In this document: positions 1-10,456 of the stretch, in pieces | How positions within the stretch are numbered: position 1 is the stretch's first letter | Layout: each line of letters opens with the position of its first letter | IMG/VR virus record: IMGVR_UViG_2908572912_000003 | From: a virus | Taxonomy: Duplodnaviria > Heunggongvirae > Uroviricota > Caudoviricetes | Length of the DNA stretch: 38,820 bases | Direction: 5' to 3' (one strand) | Program-made: the position numbers and the translations under genes | The notes under the pieces: model-generated | Database searches by the model: none | What the model was told of the DNA's origin: nothing | Seen by the model: the letters and a program-made list of their open reading frames with translations, nothing else

Positions 1-265
<265 letters not shown>

Positions 266-743: not shown

Positions 744-1096
744 GATGGCAGCCTCCTTGAAGTAACAGTTACAGCTACCACTGGAGTTCCTACGCTCATG
801 GGTGGTAGCCCGGACGGGGGTAGGAATACCGGCCTTCAAGGAAACCGGCCAGCCCGAAGGCTGCCCCGCCCGGACCACCATTATCTGACAGAGGCTACGG
901 TTTAAAAAACACAGCCAGAAAAACAGGTGTGCCGAAGCAACGACGTAAAAAAAGACGCATGGCGCGTCATATGTCGCCTTGAAGTAACTCGGGTTCCTAC
1001 GCCCGGCTGCCGATTTTGCGGCAGCGGGAAAACTATATCCGCAAATGCCGGAAAAAGGCAAGCCAGAAAAAGGGACTTTTTGCAGGATGGGTATCA

Positions 1097-1842: not shown

Positions 1843-1914
1843 TCTGCAATGCGTCGTGTTGTTGTCCGGTGTACGTCACAATTTTCTTAACCTGAAGTGA
1901 CGAGGAGCCGGAAA

Positions 1915-2649
1915 ATGTCTGACAACACCATCCCTGAATATCTGCAACCCGCGCTGGCACAACTGGAAAAGGCCAGAGCCGCCCATCTTGAGAACGCCCG
2001 CCTGATGGATGAGACCGTCACGGCCATTGAACGGGCAGAGCAGGAAAAAAATGAGCTGGCGCAGGCCGACGGAAACGACGCTGACGACTGGCGCACGGCC
2101 TTTCGTGCAGCCGGTGGTGTCCTGAGCGACGAGCTGAAACAGCGCCACATTGAGCGCGTGGCACGCCGGGAGCTGGTACAGGAATATGACAATCTGGCCG
2201 TGGTGCTGAATTTTGAACGTGAACGCCTGAAAGGGGCGTGTGACAGCACGGCCACCGCCTACCGGAAGGCACATCATCACCTGCTGAGTCTGTATGCAGA
2301 GCATGAGCTGGAACACGCCCTGAATGAAACCTGTGAGGCGCTTGTCCGGGCAATGCATCTGAGCATCCTGGTACAGGAAAATCCGCTCGCCAACACCACC
2401 GGCCATCAGGGCTACGTCGCGCCGGAAAAGGCTGTCATGCAGCAGGTGAAATCATCGCTGGAACAGAAAATAAAACAGATGCAAATCAGCCTCACCGGCG
2501 AGCCGGTTCTCCGGCTGACCGGACTGTCAGCGGCAACACTCCCGCACATGGATTATGAGGTGGCAGGCACACCGGCACAGCGCAAGGTGTGGCAGGACAA
2601 AATAGACCAGCAGGCAGCAGAGCTGAAGGCCAGAGGGCTGCTGTCATGA
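1915..2649 (+). CDS. sid: Capsid size determination protein Sid (P4-like external scaffold)
   Basis: 244-aa ORF, matching the recalled P4 Sid length; ATG at 1915 with GAGGAG at an 8-nt spacing; stop overlaps the delta start (ATGA); sid-delta-psu order. Confidence 0.7.
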   Translation: MSDNTIPEYLQPALAQLEKARAAHLENARLMDETVTAIERAEQEKNELAQADGNDADDWRTAFRAAGGVLSDELKQRHIERVARRELVQEYDNLAVVLNFERERLKGACDSTATAYRKAHHHLLSLYAEHELEHALNETCEALVRAMHLSILVQENPLANTTGHQGYVAPEKAVMQQVKSSLEQKIKQMQISLTGEPVLRLTGLSAATLPHMDYEVAGTPAQRKVWQDKIDQQAAELKARGLLS

Positions 2650-3146
2650 TTTACTGCCCGTCGTGTGGACATGTTGCTCACACCCGTCGCGCACATTTCA
2701 TGGACGATGGCACCAAGATAATGATTGCACAGTGCCGGAATATTTATTGCTCTGCGACATTTGAAGCGAGTGAAAGCTTTTTCTCTGACTGTAAAGATTC
2801 AGGAATGGAATACATTTCAGGCAAACAGAGATACCGCGATTCACTGACGTCAGCCTCCGGCAGCATGAAACGCCCGAAAAGAATGCTTGTTACCGGATAT
2901 TGTTGTCGGAGATGTAAAGGCCTTGCACTGTCAAGAACATCGCGGCGTCTGTCTCAGGAAGTCACCGAGCGTTTTTATGTGTGCACGGATCCGGGCTGTG
3001 GTCTGGTGTTTAAAACGCTTCAGACCATCAACCGCTTCATTGTCCGCCCGGTCACGCCGGACGAACTGGCAGAAAGCCTGCATGAAAAACAGGAACTGCC
3101 GCCAGTACGCTTAAAAACACAATCATATTCGCTGCGTCTGGAATGA
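2646..3146 (+). CDS. delta: Late gene activator Delta (tandem Ogr-like zinc-finger domains)
   Basis: 166 aa with two Ogr-type zinc-finger modules (MIYCPSCGH...CRNIYC and YCCRRCKG...YVCTDPGCG). Confidence 0.85.
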   Translation: MIYCPSCGHVAHTRRAHFMDDGTKIMIAQCRNIYCSATFEASESFFSDCKDSGMEYISGKQRYRDSLTSASGSMKRPKRMLVTGYCCRRCKGLALSRTSRRLSQEVTERFYVCTDPGCGLVFKTLQTINRFIVRPVTPDELAESLHEKQELPPVRLKTQSYSLRLE

Positions 3147-3219
3147 GGGCTGCCGGTTAACACCGGCCGTCGCCGCACACCGTATTTTTATTCTTCAGCA
3201 TGATGAGAAAGAGATAACG

Positions 3220-3792
3220 ATGGAAAGCACAGCCTTACAGCAGGCCTTTGACACCTGTCAGAATAACAAAGCAGCATGGCTGCAACGCAAAAATGAGCTG
3301 GCAGCGGCCGAACAGGAATATCTGCGGCTTCTGTCAGGAGAAGGCAGAAACGTCAGTCGCCTGGACGAATTACGCAATATTATCGAAGTCAGAAAATGGC
3401 AGGTGAATCAGGCCGCCGGTCGTTATATTCGTTCGCATGAAGCCGTTCAGCACATCAGCATCCGCGACCGGCTGAATGATTTTATGCAGCAGCACGGCAC
3501 AGCACTGGCGGCGGCACTGGCACCGGAGCTGATGGGCTACAGTGAGCTGACGGCCATTGCCCGAAACTGTGCCATACAGCGTGCCACAGATGCCCTGCGT
3601 GAAGCCCTTCTGTCCTGGCTTGCGAAGGGGGAAAAAATTAATTATTCCGCACAGGATAGCGACATTTTAACGACCATCGGATTCAGGCCTGACGCGGCTT
3701 CGGTGGACGACAGCCGTGAAAAATTCACCCCTGCGCAGAACATGATTTTTTCGCGTAAAAGTGCGCAACTGGCATCACGTCAGTCTGTGTAA
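3220..3792 (+). CDS. psu: Polarity suppression protein Psu (capsid decoration / Rho antagonist)
   Basis: 190 aa, matching the recalled P4 Psu length; sits immediately after delta and before the cos-like site. Confidence 0.8.
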   Translation: MESTALQQAFDTCQNNKAAWLQRKNELAAAEQEYLRLLSGEGRNVSRLDELRNIIEVRKWQVNQAAGRYIRSHEAVQHISIRDRLNDFMQQHGTALAAALAPELMGYSELTAIARNCAIQRATDALREALLSWLAKGEKINYSAQDSDILTTIGFRPDAASVDDSREKFTPAQNMIFSRKSAQLASRQSV

Positions 3793-3853: not shown

Positions 3854-3956
3854 TTTGCATGCGTTTCCCTGCCTCATTTTCTGCAGACCGCGCCATTCCC
3901 GGCGCGGTCTGAGCGTGTCAGTGCAACTGCATTAAAACCGCCCCGCAAAGCGGGCG

Positions 3957-3975
3957 GGCGTGGCGGGGAGAGCAT
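3957..3975. other. P2/P4-type cohesive end (cos) site, variant
   Basis: GGCGTGGCGGGGAGAGCAT matches the recalled 19-nt P2/P4 cos GGCGAGGCGGGGAAAGCAC at 16 of 19 positions and lies downstream of psu as in P4. Confidence 0.4.
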
Positions 3976-4136: not shown

Positions 4137-6368
4137 TCATAAAAGTATTGGCCCTTTATTAAAATCATTGGTTTTGAAGTTTATTTCAAAGTGTTTGTAT
4201 ATTCGAGCCGGTTTTTCAGCAAAAAGTTCGTTTGCAGTTACGATGAATGCCGGGATATCCAGTTCTTTAGCATTAAGATACTCTATTGTTTTAATGATTC
4301 GCTCATCCTCCTTGCTGAGGAGACATGAAAACATAATAAAGTCACAATTCACCAGTGCGGCTATCTTGAGAAGTTCGTCGATTTGCTTGGTGCTGAATGT
4401 AGCATTAGACTTGCATTCGCATAGGCCCAATTTATGACCAATCTTCACAAAAACATCGATGTCAGATATTAGTTTTGTTTCTTTAAATACTTCATAGTTG
4501 GATTCATAACTAAAATGGTTATAGCCTTGTTTATTAATGTAATTTATTAATAATAAAGTGGCTAATTGACCTTGGTCTACCGCGCGGGCTACTAGTTGAT
4601 TTAACTTATAGTGGTCGTTTAGTACTTTCCCGTTATCGAATAAAGGTATGTTAATCACGTTCCCACATTCGACGCAGTGGTTTATCCGTTGTAAGGTTTC
4701 CAAGGGAAACCATAGCATTGCTGAACAATGCTCACATTGGAAATGCTTCCCTCTTAATAAAATGTTTGCATTATATAAGTTTTGCAACTTCCCTTGGTAG
4801 AGTGCGGGTGATGTGTTTTTGTCTTTTAATTTATTCTCTATGGTTTCCATAGGAATAATGGTGGATGATAACGATATGTCGCCTCGCTCTTTTAGAGTGC
4901 CAATGTGAGAAATTAAGTCATCGTGTGAAATATTATCTTCAAGATTAGGAAATGCCTTTTTAACAAGTCGTTCTGTCCTTGTATGCGGGGTCAGCGATAC
5001 CAATAAATCAAATATTTTTTTGTCGCTAATTAATTTAGCGTTATCAACTCCGCCGAGTAGTTGTATTAATTGCTCTAAAATAAACGTTTTTGCTGTTTGC
5101 TTTAATGTGAGACTATAATGGTGAAAATGTGAGTGTAGTAAATCAACAAATGAAGGTAGTTTGAATGTTTCAGTTATTCCTGATGTGCTGTAAGGAGAGA
5201 AATGTTTGAAGTACTTGGATAACCCCTTCTTGGATAAGCGTGTAAAGTGGTGCGAAAACATTGAGTTATCTACGAGGTTATCAGAAAAACAATGGCCTAA
5301 AAAATATTTTTTGGGATAGGATAGTTCTGCTGGCCCTCTAACTTCAAAAACAAATCCTCCTCCAAAACCTATATCAGCGAATGTCTTTTCATTAGGGTGA
5401 GTTAGGGTTTTGATGTCTGATGGGTCTGTGAGATATTGGTTATGTTCAAAATTGGTCCATCTTTCTTTATTACTTGGGAAGTAGTATTTGTCAGCAATAA
5501 TATATTCATTGCTTGAAAGGTTAGACGGTAATTTATTTATTTCGTTTTCATTGCTTACGACCAATATGGTTTCATTAGATATTATCTCTCCATATCTCTC
5601 AATTTCTTCAAGCGGCAACCAAGCTAATTTGGCATAGTTATAGCTGTTTCTGGTGTTCCAAAAGTAAAGAATGAAATTGAAGTCAGACGAGTGTGAGATA
5701 AACAGATAATCCTTGTCTTTATCTGCAAAAAAACCTTTATTATTATGGTTTTTGTCATAGATACTTGATGATGTATATGCAGAGCCTATAGCGTTGGTTA
5801 AATTGTGATATTTTGTTTTGTTTTCGAATATATTTGATTTTATTTTATTAGGGTCGGCGATGCATGAAATGGTTACATCTTGAAAAATTGATGGCATTCT
5901 CTTTAAGTGGACATAGTTTCTTTTATCTATTACACCAAAGTTTAAAGCGAGGAATAACGAGTTGGCAGTATATTCAATATTTGATGATGCATAAACTTTA
6001 CTAGGTATTAATGTTGGGTCTTTTGTGGCTAAATAAGGAGTGCTAGAGAACGTAAAAATTGGAGAGCAAAAGTTTAGTAAATTATAGTTAGTTGACTTGG
6101 AATTGTAAGTTATAGCATTAAAGAATTCTGAAATGGTTTCATCTTCAAGGTTTGAATAGTTGAGTACAACATCAGGATCATAGCTATCAACAAGTGTCTT
6201 GTTTATTTCTGAAAGCAATGAATTATCATTTTTTAAAATTAAATTTAGGATGCCATCAATATCTTGCATTAACGACATGAATATTGATAGGAATATTTCA
6301 TGATCATCTTCGATGATAAACAACTTTCGAATGGGACGGACTTTGGTTGTAACAAATGAATTATACAC
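4137..6368 (-). CDS. Large uncharacterised cargo protein (743 aa) with a C-terminal zinc ribbon and PD-(D/E)xK-like nuclease motifs; candidate anti-phage defence protein
   Basis: Uninterrupted 2.2-kb ORF, visibly AT-rich against GC-richer flanks; GTG start at 6368 with AAGGAA upstream, 25 bp downstream of the integrase stop; CEHC (4725-4736) and CVEC (4665-4676) cysteine pairs; DIDVFV followed by ECK (4410-4418). No Walker A motif seen. Confidence 0.75.
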   Translation of the reverse strand: MYNSFVTTKVRPIRKLFIIEDDHEIFLSIFMSLMQDIDGILNLILKNDNSLLSEINKTLVDSYDPDVVLNYSNLEDETISEFFNAITYNSKSTNYNLLNFCSPIFTFSSTPYLATKDPTLIPSKVYASSNIEYTANSLFLALNFGVIDKRNYVHLKRMPSIFQDVTISCIADPNKIKSNIFENKTKYHNLTNAIGSAYTSSSIYDKNHNNKGFFADKDKDYLFISHSSDFNFILYFWNTRNSYNYAKLAWLPLEEIERYGEIISNETILVVSNENEINKLPSNLSSNEYIIADKYYFPSNKERWTNFEHNQYLTDPSDIKTLTHPNEKTFADIGFGGGFVFEVRGPAELSYPKKYFLGHCFSDNLVDNSMFSHHFTRLSKKGLSKYFKHFSPYSTSGITETFKLPSFVDLLHSHFHHYSLTLKQTAKTFILEQLIQLLGGVDNAKLISDKKIFDLLVSLTPHTRTERLVKKAFPNLEDNISHDDLISHIGTLKERGDISLSSTIIPMETIENKLKDKNTSPALYQGKLQNLYNANILLRGKHFQCEHCSAMLWFPLETLQRINHCVECGNVINIPLFDNGKVLNDHYKLNQLVARAVDQGQLATLLLINYINKQGYNHFSYESNYEVFKETKLISDIDVFVKIGHKLGLCECKSNATFSTKQIDELLKIAALVNCDFIMFSCLLSKEDERIIKTIEYLNAKELDIPAFIVTANELFAEKPARIYKHFEINFKTNDFNKGPILL

Positions 6369-6393
6369 TTTTTCGCATTCCTTTTATTGTTTT

Positions 6394-7596
6394 TTAATTA
6401 CTGGCTGATAGTGACTTAACGTAATTCCCCCACCAACTCATTAGCTCTATCCTTTGTTCTAAATAAATTGAACGATTATAAGCTCTACGTACTTCATTTT
6501 TATCTGTGTGCGCTAATGCTGACTCTATGACATCCGCATTCATCCCCGCTTCATTCATCGCTGTACTCGCAATAGACCTTAAACCATGAGCAACAAGCTT
6601 TCCACCATATCCAATTCTCTTCAGCGCAGCATTAGCCGTCTGGCTATTCATTGGTTGCTTTGGGTCATTCCTGCTCGGAAAAACGTGCTCTCGATTGGCA
6701 CTAATAGGTTTCATCACTTCGAGAATCTCTAATGCCTGAGTTGAGAGAGGAACTATGTGCTCACGTTTAGCCTTCATTCGTTCGGCCGGAATCGTCCATA
6801 GCTTTGTTTCGAGATCGATTTCAGCCCACCGAGCACCGGAGGCCTCAGAAGGGCGCACAAGGGTCAGGAGTTGCCATTCGATTAGACAGCGAGTCGGAAC
6901 AGACAGATTTGACATGACTAAAGAACGCATCAGCTTCGGCAATTCTTCTGGCCGCAACGTCGGCATGTTTTGCTTTTTGGGCTTCTCAAAGGCCATGCCA
7001 ACACCGGATGCTGGATTGGCATCAATCAGACCAGTGTTTACGGCATAAATCATGATTTCGTTAATACGCTGCACCAGTCGACGTACAGTCTCAAGCGCCC
7101 CACGTGCTTTTATTGGCTCAAGGGCTTCAACCAAAGTTCGGGCTTTGATTTGCTGAACGGGGATCTCACCGATGGCAGGGAATACATCTTTCTCCAGTGA
7201 ACGCCAAATGTCTTTTGCGTAATCAGGGGTAACGCTTTTGCTTTTGAGATGGAACCAGTTAGCGGCGACCGTTGAAAAAATACTGTCCAGAGCGATTTGC
7301 TGCTGTTCCTCTGCAACTTCGGCCTGAATTTGTGGGTCAATTCCGTTGGCTAACAAGGCAAGGTAATCCGCTCTTAACCCTCGGGCGTCAGCAAGTGAAA
7401 GGGCGGGGAAAGCACCTAGCCCCATCATTGTCCGCTGTTTTGTCGCCGGACGTTGATAACGGAAACGCCAGAGCTTTTTCCCGCTGGTTTTCACTATCAG
7501 GAAAAGGCCATCGCCATCATGCAGCGTTAGATCCTTCTCTAACGCTTTAGCGCGCAGAACTTCGGTGTTGGTCAGGGGGCGTGTTGTCCGTGCCAC
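6394..7596 (-). CDS. int: P4-type tyrosine integrase
   Basis: 400 aa; N-terminal arm-binding region (GLFLIVKTSGKKLWRFRYQ) and C-terminal catalytic region (HGLRSIAST...AHTD...RAYNR); GTG start with AAGGAG upstream; adjacent to the att core. Confidence 0.9.
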   Translation of the reverse strand: MARTTRPLTNTEVLRAKALEKDLTLHDGDGLFLIVKTSGKKLWRFRYQRPATKQRTMMGLGAFPALSLADARGLRADYLALLANGIDPQIQAEVAEEQQQIALDSIFSTVAANWFHLKSKSVTPDYAKDIWRSLEKDVFPAIGEIPVQQIKARTLVEALEPIKARGALETVRRLVQRINEIMIYAVNTGLIDANPASGVGMAFEKPKKQNMPTLRPEELPKLMRSLVMSNLSVPTRCLIEWQLLTLVRPSEASGARWAEIDLETKLWTIPAERMKAKREHIVPLSTQALEILEVMKPISANREHVFPSRNDPKQPMNSQTANAALKRIGYGGKLVAHGLRSIASTAMNEAGMNADVIESALAHTDKNEVRRAYNRSIYLEQRIELMSWWGNYVKSLSASN

Positions 7597-7744: not shown

Positions 7745-7780
7745 TTTCTGTACTTCACTGGACGTATCCGGATCATGATT

Positions 7781-7808
7781 TGGTGGGCTGGCGGGAGTTG
7801 AACCCGCG
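7781..7808 (-). other. Attachment-site core: 3'-terminal 28 nt of a tmRNA (ssrA)-like gene, not a complete RNA gene
   Basis: Minus strand reads CGCGGGTTCAACTCCCGCCAGCCCACCA, nearly identical to the recalled E. coli ssrA 3' end (GCGGGTTCAACTCCCGCCAGCTCCACCA); the sequence 5' of it is AT-rich and not RNA-like. Confidence 0.55.
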
Positions 7809-7937: not shown

Positions 7938-8561
7938 ATGACAATACAGGAAATAATTCAGCAACGTAATATTCGTAGCTTGTTTCATTTTACACATAGC
8001 GATAATCTAACTTCCATTTTAGATAATGGCCTTATGTCTCGTTCAGAACTTGATAATGAAAATAATGAATATAATTATAATGATGAAGAAAGGATTGATG
8101 GTCATCCAGATGCGATTTGTTTGTCCGTAAGTTACCCTAATGCAAAAATGTTTTATAAATATAGATGTTTAAAGCCTGGGGACTGGGTTATATTAGAAAT
8201 CAATCCATCTGTTCTTTGGGCTAAGGATTGCGCTTTTTATCCTACCAACGCAGCTTCGAATAACGTTCGTTTTATAAATCTTGATTTGATGAAAGGAGCT
8301 GAGGCATTTAGTGCTTTGTTTTCAGAGAATGTTTTTGGGATTCAGAGAGATGTAAACCTTCCAAGTGAGTATACGACGGATGTTCAAGCTGAAATACTGG
8401 TATTTGAAAAAATTCCTCCCTCATATATTATAAGCACTTTTCACCCTAACAAAGAATCTGCTGAACATTTCAAGAGATTATATCCACAGACAATACAGAG
8501 ATCTTATGATAATCTTAATGCTAGAACATTTTATTCTCAGAGGCATTATTATTTAGGATAA
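7938..8561 (+). CDS. DarT-like DNA ADP-ribosyltransferase toxin (DUF4433-like)
   Basis: 207 aa, AT-rich; N-terminal LFHFTHSDNLTSILDNGLMS resembles the recalled DarT NAD-binding motif; candidate catalytic Glu in AEILVFE near residue 150-155; a partner ORF follows 4 bp downstream. Confidence 0.5.
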   Translation: MTIQEIIQQRNIRSLFHFTHSDNLTSILDNGLMSRSELDNENNEYNYNDEERIDGHPDAICLSVSYPNAKMFYKYRCLKPGDWVILEINPSVLWAKDCAFYPTNAASNNVRFINLDLMKGAEAFSALFSENVFGIQRDVNLPSEYTTDVQAEILVFEKIPPSYIISTFHPNKESAEHFKRLYPQTIQRSYDNLNARTFYSQRHYYLG

Positions 8562-8564
8562 GTT

Positions 8565-9254
8565 ATGGCCGTTAGACCTGTTTTCGTCCCTACAAACGCA
8601 GGGAACTTACTATCGATCACGAAGGATGTGGATTTTCCTTGGGCTCCTGGTATGTCTAAAACGCAAAAGCAAAAATCGATCAGGGCGTTACATACAGCAG
8701 CGAATGAGCAGGGATTGAACTCTTTGTTGGAAATTTCTAGTAAATCCGAAGATGCGCTGGGGGTAGCACTTAGTGCATTTAATCTAAGAATAAAGACGAA
8801 AAGACTTGGGAAAGAGTTTACAGTTGAATCTGCATTTCAAGCAAGTAAAGTATTTGAAATGGGAGGACCATATGTCGATATCTTAGATAAAAGCTCGATA
8901 GAAGCAAAAAAAGATATGAGATTAAAGGAATCTGGGGGATTAGTTAACTTCAAATTTTATAATACAATATGGCCCATTGTCCCCAGGACTGCTTTTTATG
9001 ATTGGTTATATTTGAGTGCGCTCAATCAAAACAAAAATCTAGCACTCCATCTATTAAATTTTGATGGATTTACTGATATTGAATTTAATCCAGCGAAATC
9101 TATTAATTGCCAAGCCAGAGCAGCTGCACTTTTTGTCTCTTTAGTAAGACGAAATATGTTAGATGATGTTTTATCTTCAAAGGATGGTTTTTTATCAAAA
9201 TTAGCATCTCATTATGGTGTTGAAAATTATTCTATTCAACATACATTGATATGA
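8565..9254 (+). CDS. Partner of the DarT-like gene; possible NADAR (YbiA-like) domain antitoxin
   Basis: 229 aa with AGGA ribosome-binding site; LSAFNLRIKTKRLGKEFTVESAFQASKVF resembles the YbiA/NADAR segment FSNFAAWPIKVDGKTWPTSEHYFQAQKF; no macrodomain motifs (NAAN/GGGV) found. Confidence 0.4.
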   Translation: MAVRPVFVPTNAGNLLSITKDVDFPWAPGMSKTQKQKSIRALHTAANEQGLNSLLEISSKSEDALGVALSAFNLRIKTKRLGKEFTVESAFQASKVFEMGGPYVDILDKSSIEAKKDMRLKESGGLVNFKFYNTIWPIVPRTAFYDWLYLSALNQNKNLALHLLNFDGFTDIEFNPAKSINCQARAAALFVSLVRRNMLDDVLSSKDGFLSKLASHYGVENYSIQHTLI

Positions 9255-9286: not shown

Positions 9287-10456
9287 TTAATATCTATTTT
9301 TTCTATTTAAAGATGTATTTCCATCATATTCTTTGAGGTATGAGCCATAATGTCTAAATAACATCTCTGGTCCTTTATGACCCATTTGAACCGCAAGCCA
9401 AAACAGGTTTGCTCCCCGGCTGATATGGCTGGTGGCGAATGTATGTCTGGTTTGATATGGGTTTCTGTAACGAATACCTGCTTTCCGCAATGTTGGCACC
9501 CATGCTTTTTTTCTAATTGCATCAGCACTTGCCCAAGGCTTATTGGTCTTTGGATCTTCAAAGACTGTAGCATCCTTCATGAATGTAAATGGCTTCTGAT
9601 TTATCAGCGCCAACATTGCATCTTCTGTCAGTTCAACTTTACGAGTACCGGCTTTTGTCTTTGTTCCTTTGATAACACCGACAACACTTGCGCTCTGGAC
9701 ATGGGCAGTTTTTCCAACAAAGTCGATATCACGCCATCGAAGGGCACATAATTCAGAACTACGCAGGCCTGTATGTATAGCGAACCGGAACAGATTCTCC
9801 CATTGTTTGTTTCCGGCTGCTGCTAGTAATGCATCAACTTCTGCTGGTGATAGCGGATCAACCACGTAGCTGCTTTCTGCTTCTGACTTATCACTTTGGT
9901 AGCGCGAAGCAGTTACCAACGATACGGGGTTAATTTGAAGTACCCCATCGGTTACGGCTTCATCAAGTGCTGACCGCAGGAAAGATAACTGGTTGCGAAT
10001 TGTTTTTAAGGTCGTTTTCTGGCTTTGAATCCACGCTTTCAGGATTGCTGGTGTTAATTCACTTGCAGGGCAAATGTGGAGTGAGGCTAACGCACTACGG
10101 CATTTTTTATAACCACCAATCGTAGATGGTGAAAGTTTTCTCGTTTCGCAGATTTCAAGGTATTCGTCCAGGTACATTTTTACCGTTTTGCCTGCAGCAG
10201 CATTACCAAAAATTTTCAAACGAGCAGAACGGGGAAAATATTCCGCATAAATGAATGTTCCCCTTTCGATCTTATTATGAATTTCGCCGAGTGTGCGCTC
10301 GGCGTATTTAATGTTCTTTGGTGTTACTTCCAGATTGGAAAGAGGCTCACGACATCTAACTCCTTTGTAGGTGAAAGTTATATTGATCGTTTCGCCCTGG
10401 CGGTGTTTCCTGATTGTTACGCCGCGCGGTAGTTTGAGCAGTTTTGTCTGGCCCAT
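9287..10456 (-). CDS. int: Prophage tyrosine integrase
   Basis: 389 aa; catalytic region motifs (HTGLRSSELCALRW, HTFATSHI, GHKGPEMLFRHYGSY). Confidence 0.9.
   Translation of the reverse strand: MGQTKLLKLPRGVTIRKHRQGETINITFTYKGVRCREPLSNLEVTPKNIKYAERTLGEIHNKIERGTFIYAEYFPRSARLKIFGNAAAGKTVKMYLDEYLEICETRKLSPSTIGGYKKCRSALASLHICPASELTPAILKAWIQSQKTTLKTIRNQLSFLRSALDEAVTDGVLQINPVSLVTASRYQSDKSEAESSYVVDPLSPAEVDALLAAAGNKQWENLFRFAIHTGLRSSELCALRWRDIDFVGKTAHVQSASVVGVIKGTKTKAGTRKVELTEDAMLALINQKPFTFMKDATVFEDPKTNKPWASADAIRKKAWVPTLRKAGIRYRNPYQTRHTFATSHISRGANLFWLAVQMGHKGPEMLFRHYGSYLKEYDGNTSLNRKNRY

Follow-up and report, generated by a model that had tools for sequence, protein, structure and literature searches.

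We analyzed a 38,820-nucleotide stretch of tailed-phage DNA (Caudoviricetes; IMG/VR virus record IMGVR_UViG_2908572912_000003), referred to below as the window. Part of it is a P4-like satellite, and the slot between the satellite genes psu and int is occupied by a single open reading frame (ORF) for a 743-amino-acid protein, here called the cargo protein. Judged from sequence, this is a candidate single-protein sensor-nuclease defense system of a new family. The gene and its immediate surroundings are as follows.

4137..6368, minus strand: cargo ORF, 743 amino acids, GTG start at 6368, stop codon at 4137-4139 (ORF list)
6369..6393, minus strand: 25-nucleotide spacer between int and the cargo gene, with an AAAGGAA Shine-Dalgarno-like run inside
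6394..7596, minus strand: P4-type tyrosine integrase (int), one border of the hotspot (ORF list and RefSeq annotation; 96.5% identical to the integrase of a Citrobacter element)
3220..3792, plus strand: psu, polarity suppression protein, the other border (ORF list and RefSeq annotation)
3938..3957, minus strand: terminator-like GC hairpin followed by a T run, 180 nucleotides downstream of the cargo stop (consensus scan only)

An earlier note on this DNA had described a single large AT-rich ORF beginning 25 bp after the integrase stop, which is what we find at 4137..6368, with the spacer at 6369-6393. Its GC content is 0.34 (0.33 at third codon positions), whereas int has 0.486, psu 0.532 and the whole window 0.49. 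The identical gene is present in two E. coli genomes, annotated as 'hypothetical protein' WP_086676113.1. The ORF is a real gene, because the ratio of nonsynonymous to synonymous substitution rates (dN/dS) is low in all of its domains and because full-length homologues share its N-terminus. By the Nei-Gojobori method, dN/dS is 0.13 against the Citrobacter copy, 0.11 against a Brenneria copy and 0.07-0.20 within each of six segments of the gene, and every domain is under purifying selection. The GTG start is placed correctly, since homologues open with the same MYNSF/MxDSF N-terminus, in their case from an ATG. No terminator is predicted in the 25-nucleotide spacer, so the cargo gene is likely co-transcribed with int.

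The earlier note could assign the protein to no named family or system, and database searches agree. The window protein matched nothing meaningful in Pfam, NCBIfam, PADLOC or PDB sequences; PADLOC-DB v2.0.0 returned 0 matches even at E ≤ 10, PHROGs returned none, and a search of viral folds in BFVD gave nothing at E < 1e-3. A motif scan likewise bears out the reported lack of a nucleoside triphosphatase (NTPase) motif: Walker A is absent. Neither profile searches nor structure prediction brought out strong homology to a characterized non-defense protein. Two apparent leads were discarded. A profile of the close family (A1) matched a B12-binding domain in the PDB at E 0.14 and others at worse values, which we dismissed as chance matches, and 'ABC transporter substrate-binding protein', as NCBI calls the homologue in Buttiauxella, is backed by no domain match. 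Literature searches for the protein accession and for Can2-like orphan nucleases found nothing.

An AlphaFold2 model built from a 23-sequence alignment is confident overall (predicted local distance difference test, pLDDT, 84.2; predicted template modeling score, pTM, 0.83) and divides the protein into six predicted parts, listed here from the N-terminus.

5769..6368, minus strand: residues 1-200, first Rossmann-like alpha/beta domain; R11-P12, D64-P65-D66, N70, S72 and G145 conserved
5469..5768, minus strand: residues 201-300, second small Rossmann-like (2x2) domain, core at about 220-295; F236-W237-N238-T-R240 motif
5154..5468, minus strand: residues 301-405, beta-rich domain; within the close family, H324-P325, E342 and R377 never vary
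4764..5153, minus strand: residues 406-535, helical region, delimited by pLDDT blocks of the model and DSSP
4617..4763, minus strand: residues 536-584, Cys4 zinc ribbon; C545, C548, C565, C568 and W553 invariant; Cys codons at 4665-4736
4140..4616, minus strand: residues 585-743, PD-(D/E)xK nuclease domain of Can2/Card1 type; D636-x-D638...E651-x-K653 at 4410-4463

Residues 460-530 of the helical region, modeled with low confidence (pLDDT 50-60), probably form a flexible linker. The beta-rich domain had no specific fold match, and many family members give weak Pfam zinc-ribbon matches.

The nuclease is the best-defined part of the protein. In the C-terminal residues the earlier note had recognized a restriction-endonuclease-like signature, CEHC...CVEC followed by E, DIDVFV and ECK. 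These motifs are located at C545-E-H-C548, C565-V-E-C568, E626, D636-I-D638-V-F-V and E651-C-K653, and the structure prediction upholds the reading as a genuine PD-(D/E)xK nuclease after a Cys4 zinc ribbon: the predicted core is alpha-beta-beta-beta-alpha-beta, in which strand 2 bears the D and strand 3 the (D/E)-x-K, as in the PD-(D/E)xK superfamily. The comparison of the nuclease domain extends over 197-228 residues. The domain also has the catalytic E/D-x-D...E-x-K of Card1_endonuc-type nucleases such as Can2 and Card1. When a profile of 101 family sequences was searched against PDB sequences, the top three matches were Can2, VC1899 and Cdn1 (E 0.0099-0.086). Across the catalytic strands the family consensus 'DiDlvf...lgEcK' lies opposite 'ELDVVF...IECK' of Can2, pairing D636-x-D638...E-C-K of the cargo protein with E276-L-D278...E-C-K. 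Can2 E276 and D278 are active-site residues that were mutated to kill the nuclease (PMC7969007); because they align with these, D636/D638 together with E651/K653 are the predicted active site. Among 101-114 full-length homologues, many only 16-20% identical overall, D638, E651, W553 and all four cysteines never vary, and K653 is retained in 99%. More distant relatives weakly match the nuclease part of the PADLOC CARF_PDDEXK and Csx1 models (best E 8e-6), and 11 of the 63 members of a family alignment (A4) weakly match Pfam Card1_endonuc. The modeled C-terminus is thus a zinc ribbon followed by a nuclease fold of Can2/Card1 type, not a generic restriction-enzyme fold.

In the same 63-member alignment, 13 members weakly match Pfam UPF0515 (best E 5.8e-5), most likely through the zinc ribbon. 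We take UPF0515 to be the eukaryotic Shiftless/C19orf66 family.

These features bear on whether the protein could be a direct restriction-type enzyme, similar to a type IV or a type IIS enzyme but with no methylase. In that case its N-terminal domains would bind a feature of phage DNA (modified bases, unusual structures or free ends) for the nuclease to cut, with no allosteric small-molecule trigger and no killing of the host. A zinc ribbon beside a nuclease could bind DNA, and there are two suggestive contexts, a 913-amino-acid 'restriction endonuclease' in the same slot of a related satellite and a distant family member inside a type I restriction-modification (R-M) operon. We nevertheless regard such an enzyme as unlikely, as the nuclease resembles signal-activated Can2/Card1 more closely than it does restriction enzymes of any kind, the restriction-enzyme models of Pfam and PADLOC gave no match, and a fold search found no SRA, PUA, EVE, YTH or known DNA-recognition fold in residues 1-405.

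Nor did the fold search find CARF, SAVED, TIR or NTPase folds in these 405 N-terminal residues, and profile searches of the region were empty (Pfam; A2 profile against PDB sequences). Readings as DHH (from a D-x-D motif), Toprim or ANL-like domains were rejected for their short aligned lengths and the absence of the other defining motifs. The module is conserved in sequence, not a variable or fast-evolving specificity region. R11-P12, P65-D66, G145, W237 and R240 are at least 90% conserved over the diverged family, and W237 is invariant across 63 diverse members. Such retention at 16-20% overall identity suggests a conserved binding or catalytic pocket. One speculative extension, which we think has a small chance of being right, is that the module constitutes a new class of ligand receptor gating a Can2-type nuclease outside CRISPR, sensing a conserved small molecule or nucleic-acid signature and doing so without a dedicated synthase. 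If so, it would be a new sensor domain family of about 1,700 members, and the cue might be, for example, a phage-made or stress-made nucleotide.

The family is large and deeply diverged, but the gene itself is rare. An identical copy of the gene occurs in 2 of 5426 complete E. coli genomes. The exact protein is found on about 50 contigs of E. coli, Citrobacter and Salmonella, 'hypothetical' throughout. Homologues form 24 clusters at 90% identity, all full length at about 745 amino acids. A survey of 100,044 species, one genome each, yielded eight loci of close relatives, in Citrobacter, Buttiauxella, Pectobacterium, Legionella, Telluria, Chryseobacterium and two Bacteroidota metagenome-assembled genomes; full-length conservation thus reaches from Enterobacterales as far as Legionella, Telluria and Bacteroidota. 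Repeating the word-indexed search for homologues a second and a third time added almost nothing. A profile search of 1.84 billion representative sequences found 1764 relatives at E ≤ 1e-3 (712 at E ≤ 1e-10), mostly 740-830 amino acids long, of which the best 150 were inspected; the relatives examined keep the whole domain architecture. Searching plasmid and phage collections with the cargo protein (tblastn) gave no matches. The homologue of Pectobacterium fontis (L014 5647-7882; L029 5123-7358) appears frameshifted, either a pseudogene or a sequencing error, because tblastn splits it into two overlapping segments (residues 1-236 and 214-743) and it spans two ORFs of 245 and 367 amino acids.

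An enterobacterial paralogous subfamily (P0025/P0188), about 47% identical to the window protein, is commoner, with 485 member sequences. It occurs in E. coli, Salmonella Saintpaul and Klebsiella, always as 'hypothetical' and often ending at contig edges, and was not found on known plasmids.

Genomic neighborhoods place the homologues in mobile elements or defense contexts; they do not lie mostly outside mobile elements, a distribution that would have counted against the defense role suggested by the earlier note. At 11 of about 19 close-family loci the gene is immediately downstream of a P4-type integrase, on the same strand and 6-34 nucleotides away. Genes for ogr/delta, sid-like, alpA, icd and primase are further parts of these elements, which usually sit at smpB-ssrA. 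The Legionella homologue is in an island resembling an integrative and conjugative element (ICE), with TraM, Mrr and AbiEi/AbiEii. Another homologue shares a conjugative element with genes for ArdC and a coupling protein, one abuts a DUF4365 nuclease gene at an integrase-flanked locus, and one neighbors an anti-Pycsar-like lactamase-fold gene; further loci have transposases or a caspase-like neighbor. A distant family member has hsdS on one side and hsdR on the other within a type I R-M operon. In that operon an unannotated gene for 434 amino acids (L011 1857-3161) separates hsdS from the family member and could be a partner or a separate embedded defense gene.

No conserved partner gene was found across the loci examined, where only the upstream integrase recurs, and solely in satellites; the protein therefore acts alone. 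None of about 20 loci examined contains cas genes, so there is no association with type III CRISPR. The neighborhoods also inform a second alternative, that the protein is an orphan effector whose Rossmann-like module is a new receptor for a nucleotide second messenger, in place of CARF or SAVED, with the signal made elsewhere by another defense system, the host or the phage. Known nucleases of the Can2/Card1 type are all ligand-gated, Rossmann-like domains are the fold class of the CARF and SLOG sensors, and N-terminal motifs retained at such low overall identity suggest one conserved ligand. Yet the loci examined have no linked cyclase, TIR or other gene for making a signal, and neither type III CRISPR nor the cyclic-oligonucleotide-based antiphage signaling system (CBASS) was seen in association, which leaves this alternative very doubtful in our view.

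The element carrying the cargo gene is a P4-like satellite, as seen from these further features of the window.

798-1038, minus strand: P4 immunity region (Rfam)
1897-3792: sid, delta and psu (as annotated in RefSeq for E. coli AR_0369, where the locus is identical)
7780-7808, minus strand: fragment resembling the 3' end of transfer-messenger RNA (tmRNA, ssrA), GCGGGTTCAACTCCCGCCAGCCCACCA, beside int

Within the immunity region, Rfam identifies the C4 antisense RNA at 798-885 (86 bits) and, at 948-1038, isrK (73 bits) and c4-a1b1 targets (51 bits). In the Citrobacter element the integrase matches Arm-DNA-bind_3, Phage_int_M and Phage_integrase, and the psu homologue matches Pfam Psu at E 1.6e-87. 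The tmRNA match covers Rfam positions 346-363, the T-arm, at 7791..7808 (E 0.006), with the acceptor and CCA running on to about 7780. This fragment is probably the attachment-site (att) core of an ssrA-integrating satellite, and satellites related to the window's adjoin ssrA directly. Since the window contains no complete tRNA or tmRNA, its elements appear to be stacked or rearranged away from ssrA. The left side of the satellite is cut by an IS5-like ISKpn26 pseudogene (window 1-180; L001 7200-8042), and the RefSeq annotation lists no alpha primase/helicase in this copy; on both counts the copy is probably an immobile remnant.

As the earlier note had proposed, the psu-int slot is a cargo hotspot. 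Three related satellites that we inspected, all beside ssrA, hold different genes there: the 913-amino-acid restriction endonuclease already mentioned, a 294-amino-acid hypothetical protein and an ABC-three-component system. The slot is a true swapping hotspot because related satellites hold other cargo in it. The cargo gene occupies it only rarely: of the 5426 E. coli genomes, 374 have a related integrase (80-95% identical at the DNA level) and 2 have the cargo gene. Its position between psu and a P4-type integrase, synteny in five further elements and the alternative cargos are the hallmarks of P4-like hotspot cargo.

Comparing the window with the Citrobacter element (L012), protein identity is 96.5% for the integrase and 88.7% for the cargo, 62% for psu and 66% for sid. 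Because int and cargo are so much more alike than psu and sid, this modular divergence suggests recombination that keeps int and cargo together. On the far side of int, between it and a second, CPS-53-like integrase (9287-10456, minus strand), is a pair of genes named in RefSeq as a DarT1 single-stranded DNA ADP-ribosyltransferase toxin (7938-8561, plus strand) and a NADAR antitoxin (8565-9254, plus strand), with GC contents of 0.33-0.37. DarT1/NADAR is a known anti-phage toxin-antitoxin system, which makes the pair a second defense cargo directly beside the first.

A remnant satellite cut by an insertion sequence (IS) might instead hold a gene with no defense role, either a nuclease serving the mobile element (for addiction or as a toxin, against a helper phage, or in recombination or repair) or a passenger gene in decay. 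PD-(D/E)xK nucleases with a zinc ribbon N-terminal to them are also found in non-defense proteins such as CoiA; weak CoiA_N matches occur in three family members and weak NERD matches in five, and one homologue is frameshifted. Against this, the gene is variable cargo and not core, to judge from the E. coli counts just given; it also occurs outside satellites, in ICEs and an R-M operon; strong purifying selection acts on all of its domains; and it has no antitoxin-like partner. We therefore hold a non-defense role to be quite improbable.

Our favored interpretation is that the cargo protein is a self-contained anti-phage sensor-nuclease effector of a previously unnamed family, carried as exchangeable cargo by an ssrA-integrating P4-like satellite, to which we give a probability of about 60%. 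The effector part would be the zinc ribbon with a metal-dependent PD-(D/E)xK nuclease homologous to the nuclease domains of Can2, Card1 and Can1. By analogy with the biochemistry of these three enzymes, it may nick or degrade DNA, and possibly RNA, without sequence specificity. The N-terminal 405 residues would take the place of the Can2 CARF sensor and keep the nuclease switched off until they bind an infection cue, with gating passing through the flexible helical linker that joins the two. The pocket-type motifs R11-P12, D-P-D at 64-66, G145 and W237-N-x-R240 make a small conserved ligand or a feature of nucleic acids a likelier cue than a phage protein that varies. Once active, the nuclease could destroy phage DNA, host DNA or both, resulting in direct immunity or in growth arrest and abortive infection, as the genomic context would suggest. 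For P4 hotspot loci without annotation, a preprint reports that of 8 picked at random, 6 conferred resistance to phages (10.64898/2026.02.27.708500).

Several points weigh on the other side. The phenotype, the nuclease activity and the ligand are all putative. With no recognizable sensor fold in the N-terminal module, the term 'sensor' is an architectural argument only, and the sequence link of the nuclease to Can2/Card1 is below curated thresholds (E 0.005-0.01). Rarity and absence from sequenced phages and plasmids fit hotspot cargo but give little comparative power. One homologue, that of P. fontis, may be a pseudogene, and the IS5-family truncation of the window's satellite means that expression of the cargo is not assured.

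Among known systems, the CARF-PD-(D/E)xK ancillary nucleases of CRISPR (Can2, Card1, Can1 and Cdn1; Pfam Card1_endonuc, formerly DUF1887, including the orphan VC1899) are the best match of the cargo family by sequence profile in the PDB. Both have the catalytic (E/D)-x-D...E-C-K and an N-terminal regulatory module followed by a nuclease. Unlike Can2 and Card1, the cargo protein has no CARF domain but a different, three-domain module of 405 residues; it has a Cys4 zinc ribbon inserted before the nuclease and is twice the size; and it travels as a single gene in satellite hotspots and other islands, with no link to type III CRISPR. Its similarity is also below Pfam and PADLOC thresholds. Because CARF and CRISPR linkage are absent and sequence similarity is subthreshold, the cargo protein is not a member of the Can2/Card1 family. 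If the favored interpretation is right, a nuclease module so far tied to cyclic-oligoadenylate signaling in type III CRISPR has found a second use under an entirely different control module. That control module, for which the searches gave no relatives by structure or sequence, is conserved over about 1,700 proteins in distant phyla, and its trigger could reveal a new mode of infection sensing.

Other nuclease systems are further away. Cap4, the SAVED-nuclease effector of CBASS, similarly fuses a regulatory module to a PD-(D/E)xK effector; in contrast to it and to other ligand-gated PD-(D/E)xK effectors, the cargo protein has no SAVED domain or linked cyclase, and its structural similarity to them is much weaker than to Can2. 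Among single-gene defense nucleases, Shedu SduA (DUF4263) and HamA of Hachiman combine a variable N-terminus with PD-(D/E)xK. The cargo protein matches no PADLOC Shedu or Hachiman model, has no helicase partner and differs in its nuclease subtype and its conserved N-terminal module. It also differs from the modification-dependent and type IIS enzymes MspJI, AspBHI, FokI and EcoT38I, with no SRA-like or other DNA-recognition fold detected in residues 1-405 and no sequence-family match, and fold and motif searches found none of the SRA, PUA or EVE-like readers or NTPase translocases of type IV and modification-dependent systems. Even as a plain restriction-like enzyme, it would fill an unannotated family missed by PADLOC, Pfam and NCBIfam.

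Two papers describe cargo of the P4 psu-int hotspot (Rousset et al., 2022, PMC9122126, and the 2026 preprint of Moura de Sousa et al.), which parallels the cargo gene in genomic position, in its single-operon style and in its low GC relative to the satellite core. The cargo protein is not among the systems named, described or tested in these papers, and three strings of 21-23 nucleotides from the 5' end of the ORF are not in their supplements, synthesized sequences included. If the cargo protein does defend, it would be a one-gene, cloneable addition to the P4 hotspot repertoire.

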